IMG/VR virus record: IMGVR_UViG_3300042275_000783
Location: 1 to 25,396 of that record
Reading direction: 5' to 3' (one strand)
Length of the DNA: 25,396 bases
DNA from: a virus
Under the pieces are notes generated by a model. That model saw nothing but the letters and a program-made list of their open reading frames with translations. It had not been told where the DNA came from and did not search any database. Shown here piece after piece: positions 4 through 19,713 of this stretch. Both the position numbers and the translations under genes were made by a program. Every line of letters starts with the position of its first letter. Within the stretch, counting starts at the first letter, position 1.

Positions 4-1134
4 ATGAAATTGTTTGAAAATGCTTACTTAAATGAGCCTCTAACAAGAAAAGGTATTTTGAAAAGAAGCCATGATACTTTTGAAAGATGGATCACAATTA
101 TAACAGAAAACGAAGCAATAGAAGAAGCCTTTTATGAGCTCGAGGATAAAACAGACTTGAAAAATAAATTAATTGACCTGCTTAAAAACGCAATGATCTA
201 TGGCGTTGGTTACTTAGAGATAATCTTTGAAAACGATGATAGAAGAGCTGATGAAGAGCCTCCTAAAACGCCAATTATAGGGATTGAATTAATAGATCCA
301 AAAACAATTTATCCAGTTTACCAAACTGATCCAACAAAAGATAATTACGATGAAATACTTTATTATGAGCAAACAGTTAATAACCCAGCTGTTAAGCCAA
401 TCCAAATTCATAAGGATAGAATAATTGAGTTTAAATACGATACGCTAGGCGATGGAAAGAGACCAATAGGTGTTATAGAACCGATGCTGCATGTTATTGA
501 AAGTAAAATTGCGTTAGATAAAGCAAGCGGGAGAATACCAAAAAAGGTGATAAGCCAAATCGTTACTGCTATTTTGAAGGGAGACGTGACACAAACAGAA
601 TTAGACGAATGGGCGAGGGCGCTTGTTAAAATGGAAGATGTAGGTCGTTTCGTTACTCCCGAAATGGTAGAAGTGGATATTAAAGAGGGAGGAAAGGCTT
701 TAGATATTAAGCCTTATTCAGAGCATTTAATCTATCAGATAGCTGGGGGAGTAGGAGTTCCTTATACCGTTTTACTTGGATCAGGGCACGGAACATTAAG
801 CACAGCTGAAACTAATTTAAGAGATTATTATAGTGATCTAAAAGACATTCAAGTAAGATTTACACCGATAATTACGAGATTATTGGACTGGGAGCTTGAA
901 GCGAGAGGAATTAGCGGAGATTATGATATCGTATGGAACGAGATTTACGCTGATGAAAAGAGCGAAGCAGAGGTTTTAGCTACAAAAGCGAAGGCAATAG
1001 ACCTTCTTCTTATGAACGGAGTTATAAGCGTTAATGAAGCAAGAGAAATGTTAAACTTACCTCCAGTTAAAGAGGAAGAACTTTCTGCAAGGTTTGGGAC
1101 ACCAATAAGGAGAGGTAGGTATGCCGAAGGTTAG
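4..1134 (+). CDS. Portal protein (DUF1073/anti-CBASS-unrelated phage portal type); may begin upstream of the window
   Basis: First gene of the head module, directly before MuF. Portal-like segments LxKNAMIYGVGYLEI, QIAGGVGVPYTVLLG, YDIVWNEIY and GVISVNEAREML. Confidence 0.8.
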   Translation: MKLFENAYLNEPLTRKGILKRSHDTFERWITIITENEAIEEAFYELEDKTDLKNKLIDLLKNAMIYGVGYLEIIFENDDRRADEEPPKTPIIGIELIDPKTIYPVYQTDPTKDNYDEILYYEQTVNNPAVKPIQIHKDRIIEFKYDTLGDGKRPIGVIEPMLHVIESKIALDKASGRIPKKVISQIVTAILKGDVTQTELDEWARALVKMEDVGRFVTPEMVEVDIKEGGKALDIKPYSEHLIYQIAGGVGVPYTVLLGSGHGTLSTAETNLRDYYSDLKDIQVRFTPIITRLLDWELEARGISGDYDIVWNEIYADEKSEAEVLATKAKAIDLLLMNGVISVNEAREMLNLPPVKEEELSARFGTPIRRGRYAEG

Positions 1135-13109: not shown

Positions 13110-13544
13110 TCACCCCTCTATCGAGCCATTAAACACAATATACCCTTTGAACTTAAACCTGCTTTTCTTAACTACTGAACCATCACTCTCAATATGCTCT
13201 ACCACTTCCCTCTCTGTATGGCTGAAAACTGGCGTTGCGTAAAAGTACGGCCAAATCTCTGGAAAAATCCACATCAGCGCTGGAGAACCGACTGGCAAAT
13301 GTACATATGCATGAACTTTTTTCTGTTTGGCAAAATCAATAAGCTTTTCTACGATATTATATGCAAGCATTCCTAATTCGTCGATAGTATCTGGGCACTG
13401 TCTAACCTGACTAACAATATCTTCTGGCAAAACATCTTCTGCATTGTAAAACTCTTCAACTCCAAGCCTCTTTTTCGCTTCCTCCATTTGCTCATTCGTC
13501 AATCTATGGGACGTCAAGTTTACGAATACCTTCCTCATCTCCAT
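13110..13544 (-). CDS. csx20: Csx20-like stand-alone CARF-type ring nuclease homologue (candidate anti-type III CRISPR)
   Basis: N-terminal VFVNLTSHRLTNEQMEEAKKRLGVEEFY and C-terminal PVFSHTEREVVEHIESDGSVVKKSRFKFKGY match my recollection of the Csx20/Csx15/Csx16 pattern (SHxLTxEQ...TxRxxxE...F). Recognised by eye only. Confidence 0.65.
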   Translation of the reverse strand: MEMRKVFVNLTSHRLTNEQMEEAKKRLGVEEFYNAEDVLPEDIVSQVRQCPDTIDELGMLAYNIVEKLIDFAKQKKVHAYVHLPVGSPALMWIFPEIWPYFYATPVFSHTEREVVEHIESDGSVVKKSRFKFKGYIVFNGSIEG

Positions 13545-13568
13545 TCACCTCCATAGTTTTGTCAATAG

Positions 13569-13601
13569 ATATTATGTTTCTAATGTTTATAAACTTTTCG
13601 G
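13569..13601 (-). promoter_or_regulatory. Early promoter P1 (BRE CCGAAAAG + TATA TTTATAAA), 33-bp repeat copy A
   Basis: Minus strand ccgaaaagtttataaacattagaaacataatat, 31/33 identical to 14268-14300. Confidence 0.8.
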
Positions 13602-14240: not shown

Positions 14241-14267
14241 CTCCAACACCTCCTTCTTCTTTAATAT

Positions 14268-14300
14268 ATATTATGTTCCTAATGTTTATAAGCTTTTCGG
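14268..14300 (-). promoter_or_regulatory. Early promoter P2 (BRE CCGAAAAG + TATA CTTATAAA), 33-bp repeat copy B
   Basis: Minus strand ccgaaaagcttataaacattaggaacataatat. Confidence 0.8.
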
Positions 14301-14327
14301 TCCACCGGGATATTACTTTTTCTTTTT

Positions 14328-14361
<34 letters not shown>

Positions 14362-14548
14362 TTAGGTTATCTTTAGGACCAAAGTACTTGAGTGTAGTTT
14401 TGTGAGGAAATTCTCTGAAGATTTTTACAAAGTTTGGAGATACATTTGAGTGAGTCATTAATCCAAATCTTAATCGAGGAAATTCAAAAAATACTCCCTT
14501 TAAGATTTCGAGACTTCCTGGTCGATCTACTACAAAAAAAGGAATCAT
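14362..14548 (-). pseudogene. 5' fragment of a tRNA-guanine-transglycosylase (TGT/DpdA)-like gene truncated at the IS end
   Basis: MIPFFVVDRPGSLEILKG...FGLMTHSNVSPNF resembles the N-terminus of a TGT-like family I recall beside C5 methyltransferases. The ORF runs into the IS hairpin and stops at 14327. Confidence 0.4.
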
Positions 14549-15003: not shown

Positions 15004-15238
15004 AGTACAATCCCTCCTTTAAAAATCGTTGATAAACTTTTGCTGCTGTTACAGCAACATTTCTTGCCTTTTTTGTTCCATGCATCCAATAATAACTCCT
15101 TGCTGCTTCAGGTGTTATCTCCTCTGCTTGTATGCCCATCTCCTTTTCAAGCTGCTTCAATTTTCTCATGATCTGGTTTATTGTTGATGTTCTGTAGTTC
15201 AATGATAAATATAAGTAAAAATAGCCTTCATGCTTCAT
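14987..15238 (-). CDS. Stand-alone tyrosine-recombinase core-binding (SAM-like) domain protein
   Basis: YFYLYLSLNYRTSTINQIMRKLK...EEITPEAARSYY...RNVAVTAAKVYQRFL follows the integrase N-terminal helical pattern; there is no catalytic domain. Confidence 0.55.
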   Translation of the reverse strand: MKHEGYFYLYLSLNYRTSTINQIMRKLKQLEKEMGIQAEEITPEAARSYYWMHGTKKARNVAVTAAKVYQRFLKEGLYYEPNF

Positions 15239-15465
15239 ATTACCCAGACCTCCATGCCAACAATTACACCATCAACAAGCCTTATTTTTCCAATTAGCTT
15301 CCCAGTTGTTAGGTCATGCCACAAAATAAAACTGCCGTTCTGCAAGTCGTAAGTGACCACTCTTACAGGACAGCCAACAAAAATAGTTGTAAATGGTGTC
15401 TCTTTGTTTACTGCTTCATTAACCAACTCTTCAACAGCATTCAACAAAGATGTTTTAACCTCCAT
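15235..15465 (-). CDS. Hypothetical protein (likely start ATG 15465)
   Basis: SD GGAGGTCTGGGG precedes MEVKTSLL; the longer ORF-track version runs through the CRISPR repeat. Confidence 0.55.
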   Translation of the reverse strand: MEVKTSLLNAVEELVNEAVNKETPFTTIFVGCPVRVVTYDLQNGSFILWHDLTTGKLIGKIRLVDGVIVGMEVWVI

Positions 15466-15512
15466 CTTCCCCAGACCTCCAATTTTTTTACCTGTCGTCA
15501 TTGGGACAGGCG

Positions 15513-15542
15513 ACCTCAATTCTTTCAAAGTCTTATTGGAAC
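15513..15542 (-). CRISPR. Solitary CRISPR repeat unit (not an array), Thermococcales type, 3' end altered
   Basis: GTTCCAATAAGACTTTGAAAGAATTGAGGT versus the P. furiosus repeat GTTCCAATAAGACTAAAATAGAATTGAAAG: nt 1-14 and 20-27 identical. Intergenic; no second repeat seen. Confidence 0.8.
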
Positions 15543-15562
15543 ATTGAAAAAAATGAAAAGGA

Positions 15563-16081
15563 TTACTCAAGCTTGTTAAGAACTTCCTTCAATGTTTGAA
15601 TTAATTCCTCTTTCTTCTTTTCTTTTGCAAGTGTAATTGCTTGTTTTAGTTCTTCAATTACTTCATCCATCTCATCTTTGTCATTGCTAAAATACTGATT
15701 TACTATTTTTGCAATTTCTGTTACCGCATTTGCCATTTCTGCTTGAGTGTCATAATAATCACTAAACAACTCTTCAATATTGCCTTCTTCATCAATTTTG
15801 TATAAGATTATACCTGTCCTTGGGTGTTTTGATGAACCCCATGCAGCTGTTGCAACAATAAATGCTGGTACTTCAATAACAGCATCAATGTATGCTGGGT
15901 CTCCTCTTACCTTCAAAAATCTACCTGTGAATGCATAGCCATTTAATTTTGATGTATCAACTTTGTCTTCAAGCAATTTTGCCCATACCTTTTTCCTTGT
16001 CTTCATGGGTCTCCCAAGTGAAACATCTCCCTTCCCTATTGCCACTTTACCATCTTCAAGAATTACTACCATTTTCACCAT
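15563..16081 (-). CDS. Hypothetical viral protein (KVWAK...DTSKLNGYAFTGRFL motif) with C-terminal coiled coil
   Basis: Likely start ATG 16081 (MVKMVV), coupled to the upstream small ORF. Confidence 0.65.
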   Translation of the reverse strand: MVKMVVILEDGKVAIGKGDVSLGRPMKTRKKVWAKLLEDKVDTSKLNGYAFTGRFLKVRGDPAYIDAVIEVPAFIVATAAWGSSKHPRTGIILYKIDEEGNIEELFSDYYDTQAEMANAVTEIAKIVNQYFSNDKDEMDEVIEELKQAITLAKEKKKEELIQTLKEVLNKLE

Positions 16082-16218
16082 CTCCTTTTCTCCCATTTTT
16101 CCTCTTCTTCCTTCATCATCCTTGCAAATTCAGCCAACTCAAAATCCCCAGCTCTTCTCCCAAGCTCTTCAAGTTGCCTCCAATCTTCCACCGTTCTTCT
16201 TTCGTTTCCAAACATCAT
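16075..16218 (-). CDS. 47-aa charged helical protein (not in the ORF track)
   Basis: MMFGNERRTVEDWRQLEELGRRAGDFELAEFARMMKEEEEKWEKRRW; first ORF after promoter P3, with an SD-like GGGGGTCTGGG. Confidence 0.55.
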   Translation of the reverse strand: MMFGNERRTVEDWRQLEELGRRAGDFELAEFARMMKEEEEKWEKRRW

Positions 16219-16242
16219 TTTCCCAGACCCCCGCTTAAGTTC

Positions 16243-16373
16243 TTCAATACTATATACACCTTTGGACTATATAAACTTTTCGGTGTTTTTAAAGCAAAGT
16301 TTTAGAGGTATTTAAATAACAATAGTGGAAAAGTTTGAGGTTGTTCTACAAATTATCAAGTCTTCTTAATTAC
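16243..16373 (-). repeat. 131-bp direct repeat copy 1, containing early promoter P3
   Basis: Near-identical to 19336-19463 (one short indel region and two substitutions); contains ccgaaaagtttatatag on the minus strand. Confidence 0.95.
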
Positions 16374-16384
16374 AAAGAAATCAA

Positions 16385-19335: not shown

Positions 19336-19463
19336 TTCAATACTATATACACCTTTGGACTATATAAACTTTTTGCTTTTAAAGCAAAGTTTTAGAGGTA
19401 TTTAAATAACAATAGTGGAAAAGTTCGAGGTTATTCTACAAATTATCAAGTCTTCTTAATTAC
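19336..19463 (-). repeat. 128-bp direct repeat copy 2, containing early promoter P4
   Basis: Matches 16243-16373; contains gcaaaaagtttatatag on the minus strand. Confidence 0.95.
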
Positions 19464-19469
19464 TCAAAG

Positions 19470-19713
19470 AGGAAGTATTAATAAAATCATAATAAATTTT
19501 TATTAACTAATCAATAAAGTTCATTTTGCAAAAATTTTGTATTTTTCAGAGGAAAAAGATATATTCTGAACGAAGTCGTTATTAATTAATATATTAATTA
19601 ATAATAACTATTAACTAACTAACACCACCAAAAGCTCAATATAACTCCGGGTTATGTATTAACTGTTATTAACAATTGATAAAAATGTTAATAACACAAT
19701 AGAAAAGAGTAAA
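19470..19713. other. AT-rich non-coding region with palindromes and iterated TATTAAC/GTTATTAA motifs (origin candidate)
   Basis: Perfect 26-bp palindrome 19579-19604; inverted repeat TGTTATTAACA 19664-19674 / 19686-19696; TATTAAC at 19501, 19609, 19657 and 19667. Confidence 0.45.

Follow-up and report, generated by a model that had tools for sequence, protein, structure and literature searches.

What a single CRISPR repeat of archaeal host type may do in the untranslated leader of a viral operon is the question raised by the locus described here. The window, that is the whole stretch of DNA that was analysed, corresponds to an IMG/VR virus record; it comprises 25,396 bases, with a GC content of about 37% and an estimated completeness of 33%. 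Its + strand carries genes for portal, MuF-like protein, HK97-type capsid, tail tube and tape measure, and its - strand carries small early genes together with a C5 methylase, a PAPS-reductase-like protein, an RHH protein and an RNA ligase. The methylase/PAPS-reductase block is flanked by direct repeats, since the gaps at 16097-16384 and 19353-19713 have a long near-identical stretch in common that ends in a BRE/TATA promoter (AAAAGTTTATATAGTCCAAAGGTGTATATAGTA).

The repeat lies among the early genes in a gap of 97 bp, between an upstream ORF of 177 aa (15563..16096, - strand; stop TAA at 15565-15563) and a downstream ORF of 76 aa (15235..15465, - strand; ATG at 15465-15463) that opens a tightly packed run of five small ORFs reaching to 14327. 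The 177-aa protein belongs to no family and has no relatives in viral_contigs; the 76-aa protein likewise gave no family matches, and relatives of it were absent from viral_contigs. Searches of Pfam and PHROGs returned no match for the small ORFs of the window or for the genes that stand behind the other copies of the module described below.

Anatomy and host type of the repeat unit

Read along the transcribed - strand, the gap opens with a T-rich, pyrimidine tract (TCCTTTTCATTTTTTTCAAT, 15543..15562), a generic intergenic feature and possible partial terminator, of which a T7 tract directly adjoins the 5' side of the repeat. The CRISPR-repeat-derived unit follows (GTTCCAATAAGACTTTGAAAGAATTGAGGT, 15513..15542, - strand): its nt 1-27 are of host type, and its nt 28-30 read GGT, not AAG, AAC or AAT. 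Two bases separate this 30-mer from a GC hairpin (15490..15511 overall, - strand; 6 bp and one G-U pair) with the arms CCTGTC at 15510-15505 and GACAGG at 15496-15491 and an 8-nt loop (CCAATGAC, 15504-15497), for which the consensus of the family is CCGATGAC. An A7 run (15489-15483, - strand) and the SD sequence GGAGGT (15480-15475) lead to the next ATG, 47 nt from the end of the repeat. A preliminary description of the locus had placed the 97-bp gap, the 30-mer at 15542-15513 (-), the hairpin, the A-run and the SD correctly throughout. Its statement that no second repeat follows is borne out as well: at up to 4 mismatches the window holds a single copy, and 0 of 100 shuffles yielded a match. 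The periodicity of about 67 nt with unique spacers that characterizes an array is absent from this single-copy window.

The insert proper is the repeat together with the hairpin, about 50 nt. Intergenic gaps of the sequence L131 contain the same kind of T-tract between genes with neither a repeat nor a promoter, so such tracts occur in spacers generally and cannot stop all transcription. The L131 spacers at 505-576, 1117-1164 and 1354-1404 consist of CTTTCGTTTTTTTTCTCT followed by an A-run and an SD; having no repeat, they resemble 'empty sites' of the module, and their T8 tracts stand within an operon that has no internal promoters.

The P. furiosus repeat given in the preliminary description is correct, being identical to the Rfam CRISPR-DR6 consensus, and the window 30-mer agrees with it at 23/30 positions. 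The nearest real array consensus (GTTCCAATAAGACTTTAAAAGAATTGAAAG) shows 4 differences from the window repeat, at nt 17 and nt 28-30, and over nt 1-27 the agreement with a real Thermococci array consensus is 26/27. Among species genomes the pattern GTTNCAATAAGACT-N6-GAATTGA occurs in Thermococci only (87 stretches), and the exact 27-mer of the window is present in no array. Against Rfam RF01319 (CRISPR-DR6) the window copy scores 30.5 bits and the copies of the module range from 23.9 to 37.9 bits, all below the gathering threshold of 39 because their 3' end is altered. The CRISPR-DR6 model pairs nt 5-8 with nt 23-26, and this pairing could be the reason why AUUG is kept in the modules.

Spacers of Thermococcaceae arrays match the window at 13555-13590 (36/37), its capsid relative L109 (34/34) and the contig L097 (37/38), which identifies the window as a tailed virus of deep-sea Thermococcales, namely of Thermococcaceae. 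This host assignment agrees with a 2026 preprint that first linked head-tailed viruses to Thermococcales and whose text contains no repeat-like elements (PMC12934983). The view that a host-type Thermococcales repeat stands on the transcribed strand is upheld, and the virus is one that Thermococcaceae arrays target. The module of L097 equals the repeat of its targeting array over nt 1-27 (27/27), and Cas6 is encoded in both MAGs whose arrays target the window and L097. The Cas6-binding segment and the predicted cut site are intact in the window repeat, as had been proposed. The spacer that matches the window belongs to an array of a Thermococcaceae MAG (L005) and matches copies of an early promoter, namely P1 at 13555-13590 and P2 at 14263-14289 (25/27 aligned positions), so that this host array targets a repeated promoter region of the window. 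A weak Rfam match to HgcC RNA at 14265-14371 (+ strand; 29.3 bits, gathering threshold 50, E 0.0018) overlaps the P2 promoter gap on the opposite strand and is probably due to chance.

The module family, its tag end and its hairpin

Our searches revealed a family of 17 instances of the module, about 14 of them distinct, on 12 contigs, in which the parts always follow in one order: T-rich tract, repeat nt 1-27, changed nt 28-30, GC hairpin, C(G/A)ATGA(C/T), A-run, SD and ATG. The ATG lies 36-49 nt past the repeat in every copy, and an A-run and an SD follow the hairpin in nearly all of them. The modules are located in a related IMG/VR virus (L089), on 10 metagenome contigs and on a small contig of a Thermococci MAG (L008, G001:C172). 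The virus L089, which is syntenic with the window at about 55-65% protein identity and has a rearranged early region, carries one module; L008 carries two units; and the metagenome contigs carry one to three each, some of them with three copies between successive small genes. On multi-copy contigs the units are separated by gene cassettes of 250-370 nt. The term 'solitary' therefore suits the window and fails for other mobile elements, some of which have two or three copies. The carriers are otherwise unrelated to each other and comprise a tailed virus, an element with primase-polymerase and helicase, and carriers of a methylase or of PEGA/DUF2341 proteins.

Across 133 Thermococci genomes the module was absent except on the L008 contig, and GenBank phages and PLSDB plasmids gave no module match. 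The relatives found through the capsid protein (L109-L111) are sequences that end short of the module region. A search by the CGATGAC motif alone returned two classes only, with 0-1 or with 12-13 mismatches to the repeat, and no decayed copies of the module were found. Repeat and hairpin thus recur together as a family in related viruses and other elements, which argues against captured debris. The contig L103 bears, 1.6 kb from its two modules, a separate lone near-canonical repeat (GTTCCAATAAGACTTTAGAAGAATCGAAAG, 2581-2610, + strand) that has no T-tract, hairpin or neighbouring repeat.

The positions that vary are confined to nt 4 and nt 15-19, the same places at which 28 distinct host consensus repeats vary. 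The search patterns fixed nt 5-14 and nt 21-28 for most copies, and invariance there is partly imposed; nt 1-3, which were left free by the search, read GTT in 15/16 module copies. The sharpest difference from the host lies at the 3' end, where 28/28 host consensus repeats and 0/17 module copies have AA at nt 28-29, and where the copies unbiased at nt 28 (the window, both L008 units, L093:515 and L102:889) carry G or T. Among the viral_contigs no copy ending in GAATTGAA was found. The altered tag end, noted earlier as GGU for the window, is consistent across the whole family, which indicates a unit under selection and not debris. In the 133 Thermococci genomes a base other than A at nt 28 occurs in only 7 repeats, which are the two modules of G001:C172, three last repeats of arrays, one lone copy of such a last repeat and one repeat within an array. 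One of the three last repeats ends in GAGGT like the window, and one has a hairpin after it, which the lone copy shares. In host arrays the last repeat often retains nt 1-25/27 and is degenerate beyond, and by this comparison the modules look like repeats that need to be cut but must not start a crRNA. G is never seen at nt 4 of the modules, which have C (14), A (1) or T (1) there; among the host consensus repeats this position is C in 14, G in 12 and T in 2. The difference may reflect a link of the carriers to a single host clade or a common founder of all modules.

The hairpin was assessed over the family. MAFFT applied to the whole 3' part misaligned the hairpins, and the alignment was re-anchored on the loop. 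In the ungapped 22-column alignment of 8 copies with the motif in the loop, 91% of the cells pair against 50% in shuffles, a count that is biased because these loop-enclosing copies were chosen for pairing. Compensatory changes were present in 7/7 pairs, changed on both sides, with slid controls at no more than 48%. Folding at 75 °C used all 14 distinct copies, and 11/14 folded better than their own shuffles; folding of single sequences at 37 °C was not informative, with z from -0.3 to -1.6. Thus the hairpin reported for the window holds up through covariation in the family, and as a single copy (z -0.3) it is not stabler than shuffles at 37 °C. The remaining copies have a GC helix between tag and motif that often uses nt 28-30. 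The covariation indicates selection on the RNA, or on single-stranded DNA, 3' of the repeat.

Several other candidate functions of the gap were considered and set aside. Pairing of the T-tract with the A-run and SD, to be released by a Cas6 cut, was no better in cognate than in non-cognate pairs (p = 0.32). Mimicry of a host CRISPR leader does not apply, as leaders end in a purine-rich stretch and CGCCCT, not in a T-tract. The frame through the repeat is open in the window, but the ATG of the motif is out of frame in other copies, and spacer lengths that differ among copies by non-multiples of 3 also oppose a coding function. For GAUGA as part of a K-turn, K-loop or C/D box, inspection gave no CUGA/GA partner in a workable register.

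Operon position, promoter likeness and mosaic joints

The nearest promoter on the same strand is the BRE/TATA element CGAAAAGTTTATAT (16269..16282, - strand; PWM 18.3 versus at least 10.3 for the training sites), which stands 740 nt before the window repeat with an ORF in between and is presumed to be the start of the module-carrying transcript. The window, L089, L096, L097 and L102 have strong canonical promoters (PWM 14.5-18.7) on the strand of the module, 357-740 nt before the first module, and in L102 three ORFs separated by modules lie behind one promoter. The other gaps of the window have canonical promoters of the type CCGAAAAG(T/C)TTATA, the module gap has none, and the block of five ORFs downstream of the repeat is devoid of a promoter of its own. 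A free-standing small RNA with a promoter of its own is disfavoured by this arrangement, in which the unit belongs to an mRNA 5' UTR far behind a canonical promoter and at a fixed distance to the ATG.

The anti-CRISPR setting that had been suggested for the locus fits a gene found near the module. The window ORF at 13110-13544 (-) and the L008 ORF at 683-1102 (-) are full-length matches to CAS_Csx20 (NCBIfam) with E-values of 1.5e-11 and 2.1e-9, respectively, both below the curated cut-off. In precomputed Pfam these Csx20-like proteins correspond to PF27247 MJ1673, and a search of 5.8 billion proteins yielded just three homologues. The gene lies 2 kb downstream of the window module and directly behind the module in L008 element 1; a canonical promoter precedes it in the window and in L132, and the module takes that place in L008. 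As judged from these matches, the virus-borne proteins are related to Csx20, a small protein associated with CRISPR, and are candidates for type III counter-defence.

Such an exchange of a canonical promoter for the module would be expected if the repeat were itself an internal promoter, with AATAAG-AC-TTTA(A/G)AAG as BRE and TATA, transcription starting at the G of ATGAC about 23 nt downstream, and the T-tract serving as terminator of the preceding unit. The five downstream ORFs, which have no other promoter, are consistent with this. A leader-derived BRE/TATA PWM, moreover, aligns all copies in one register with a median score in the top 2.5% of the background, and the G of (G/A)ATGAC follows nt 21 at 20-27 nt (mean 23), the spacing found at the canonical promoters of the virus, two of which in the window carry TTGAC or ATGAC at the place of the start site. 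We nevertheless consider an internal promoter improbable, because every repeat core scores less than the weakest true site (maximum 5.7 versus at least 10.3) and several cores score below 0, e.g., TCTAGGAG and TCTCAGAG. With a longer leader-derived PWM the scores are 8.2-13.7 for the window promoters and -4.3 to 9.1 for the modules. Conservation of the repeat is lowest at the would-be TATA (nt 14-21), whereas nt 1-5 and 22-27 are invariant and would be of no use to a promoter. If transcription started in or after the hairpin, the hairpin would remain untranscribed and its covariation unexplained, and the start spacing varies over 8 nt. In host leaders (L027, L045, L062 and others) a BRE/TATA element situated at about -70 to -52 from the first repeat, e.g., TTCCAGAAAGGCTTAAAT, agrees with repeat nt 2-19 (TTCCAATAAGACTTTAAA) at 13/18 positions; this may reflect kinship between the Thermococcales repeat and the leader promoter, or a weak promoter likeness of the repeat.

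On comparison of the carriers, the modules mark mosaic joints. L008 element 1 and L108 have an identical T-tract, repeat, hairpin and SD and diverge from the ATG; up to nt 28 L093 is about 93% similar to L008, and beyond it the two are unrelated; L090 and L105 have the upstream flank in common (89%) and not the downstream part; and L102:889 and L108 have only the downstream gene in common. These joints, in carriers that are otherwise unrelated, are in line with a recombination module, a sequence kept chiefly, or just left over, as a homology patch for swaps of small-gene cassettes between co-infecting elements, which would have little function as RNA. That account is in our estimation quite unlikely: it leaves unexplained the copy of 27 nt of host repeat with its host-type variation, the avoidance of AA at nt 28-29 and the covariation of the hairpin, and the shuffling may follow simply from any conserved intergenic element.

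A candidate Cas6 site in operon RNA

The repeat unit is proposed to keep all that Cas6 needs and to have lost what effector complexes need. PfCas6 binds repeat nt 2-10, and Cas6 enzymes are generally single-turnover (PMC3902920); loading of Cmr requires the tag and a 5'-OH, and the published tag mutants concern positions other than nt 28-30 (PMC4215187). Against this background our preferred reading, held tentatively and at somewhat below even confidence, is that the module constitutes a Cas6 cleavage site within the operon, at which the RNA would be cut, effector loading avoided and Cas6 also tied up. RNA of the early operon would start at the promoter 16282-16269 and read through the 177-aa ORF and the T-tract. 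Oligo-T terminates archaeal transcription, and with the T7 tract before the repeat little RNA may reach it, a point against this reading. Host Cas6 would then bind nt 2-10 and cut after nt 22, between 15521 and 15520, a position inferred from the known behaviour of PfCas6, and the cut would part the upstream cistron from the downstream five-gene block. The downstream RNA would begin with 5'-OH AUUGAGGU, immediately followed by the GC hairpin as a cap, and the changed nt 28-30 together with the hairpin would block its uptake as a crRNA. Cas6 would retain the upstream product, so that each cut would take one Cas6 out of crRNA production. The module would thus act as a processing or insulating site of the operon that depends on host Cas6, with a decoy effect as a side-effect. 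The conserved CGATGAC motif has no role in this Cas6-processing model.

An effect as a decoy alone, in the manner of RNA anti-CRISPRs (Racr), would require that the repeat RNA sequesters Cas6 or nucleates dead-end Cas assemblies, and its place in a 5' UTR would merely reflect that there is no other non-coding space. We regard this as rather unlikely, though much of the setting is compatible with it. Viral solitary repeat units are known and one of them inhibits type I-F (PMC10651486), Cas6 enzymes are single-turnover (PMC3902920), and multiple copies per element would raise the dose. The elements are targeted by hosts with matching repeats, and the Csx20-like gene, candidate type III counter-defence, is in the same island and directly behind one copy. 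On the other hand, a promoter of its own is absent within 250 nt (PWM scores of the repeat core range from -5.9 to 5.7), and a decoy needs neither a constant distance to the ATG nor a co-conserved hairpin, motif, A-run and SD. The altered tag with the hairpin at its end would hinder the Cas7/Cas5 loading used by the type I-F Racr, and effector complexes loaded before infection would be unaffected. The processing and decoy roles are inseparable by sequence, and the pay-off to the virus may lie in message processing, in Cas6 depletion or in both.

The proposal that the unit loads Cascade or Cmr with an aberrant crRNA is likewise opposed by the altered tag and the abutting hairpin, which suggest an RNA that is cut, not loaded. 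For the related possibility of a crRNA-like guide (CreA or crlRNA), in which the tag left by Cas6 and the sequence downstream would load a host complex and repress a host gene, there are viral crRNA-like regulators in bacteria (bioRxiv 10.1101/2024.10.29.618823; 10.1101/2023.03.03.530964), and the first five tag nucleotides AUUGA are kept. We consider such a guide very improbable. Regulators of this kind have a pseudo-spacer that pairs with a host promoter and, as a rule, a second, degenerate repeat. Here a second repeat is absent, nt 28-30 are altered, and the would-be spacer is the covarying hairpin, whose arms differ between copies and which has only 7 conserved nt, outside the seed. The search of the downstream sequence against hosts that had been suggested left the 26 nt after the repeat unmatched at up to 3 mismatches in the two incomplete targeting MAGs.

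Taken more broadly, Thermococcales elements would co-opt Cas6 for their operons by means of repeat mimics that, owing to altered nt 28-30 and a hairpin cap, are cut and not loaded; this wider claim is possible and in our view doubtful. If it is true, the genes behind the mimics, including the Csx20-like candidate anti-CRISPR, depend on and drain the very Cas6 that arms the host.

Among known systems, the viral solitary repeat units and RNA anti-CRISPRs of Camara-Wilpert et al. 2023 (PMC10651486) are similar in that the virus carries one host-type repeat and neither cas genes nor a further repeat nearby, the matching system is present in the host, and the module is likely to be a Cas6 ligand in an anti-defence neighbourhood. 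The module differs from Racr in its unstructured repeat type and archaeal hosts, in its position in the 5' UTR of an operon mRNA instead of a small RNA behind its own promoter, in the systematically altered 3' end of the tag with co-conserved hairpin, CGATGAC, A-run and SD, and in the presence of up to three copies between consecutive genes. No Thermococcales case appears in the text of that study or in its accessible supplements (PMC10651486). Virus-borne mini-CRISPR arrays, as reported by Medvedeva et al. 2019 and cited in PMC11656645, place host-type repeats in an archaeal virus without cas genes; the module, in contrast, has no repeat-spacer-repeat and lacks the two or more repeats around a spacer of normal length that define such an array.

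As an operon feature, the module may be compared with two further systems. The early genes of phage T7 have RNase III processing sites between them, and Csy4/Cas6 insulators have been engineered in synthetic operons. There too an endoribonuclease site occupies a polycistronic intergenic spacer and leaves structured ends on separate messages; in the module a repeat mimic would take the role of the site and the CRISPR nuclease Cas6 that of the enzyme, with cleavage being predicted. The promoter-early stem-loop (PeSL) cassettes of T4-type phages resemble the module as short conserved regulatory elements with a stem-loop, which stand beside small early genes in plastic regions and lie at recombination joints. 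They are genuine promoters unrelated to CRISPR; the core of the module differs in being a CRISPR repeat with a poor promoter score.

Solitary viral repeats are known as RNA anti-CRISPRs, and experiments so far concern bacterial, hairpin-forming repeats; the module provides a well-defined archaeal family for an unstructured repeat. It raises the hypotheses that nt 1-27 are required by Cas6 and nt 28-30 by the effector complexes, and that a virus can use Cas6 as a processing enzyme, and it bears on why last repeats of arrays decay where they do. For P. furiosus and T. kodakarensis genetics, purified Cas6, Cmr, Csa and Cst are at hand, which makes each step directly testable. The module may also serve as a simple sequence marker for mobile elements of Thermococcales and for candidate anti-defence cassettes.

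The last repeats of host arrays, which are needed for cutting and start no crRNA, offer a parallel within the host itself, as they share with the module an intact nt 1-25/27, changes in the last 3-5 nt and, in some cases, a following hairpin. The viral units differ in being intergenic within an operon and not at the trailer end of an array; they have no trailer sequence in common with host last repeats and bear their own hairpin, motif and SD. On a Thermococci chromosome (G053:C1, at about 928.6 kb; L134) there is a lone repeat ending in GATCA and followed by the hairpin GCCTTTT...AAAAGGC. The last repeat of an array 640 kb away (L138, G053:C1 at about 1567.6 kb), together with its trailer, has almost the same sequence. 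This lone repeat may represent an emptied array or a copied array end.
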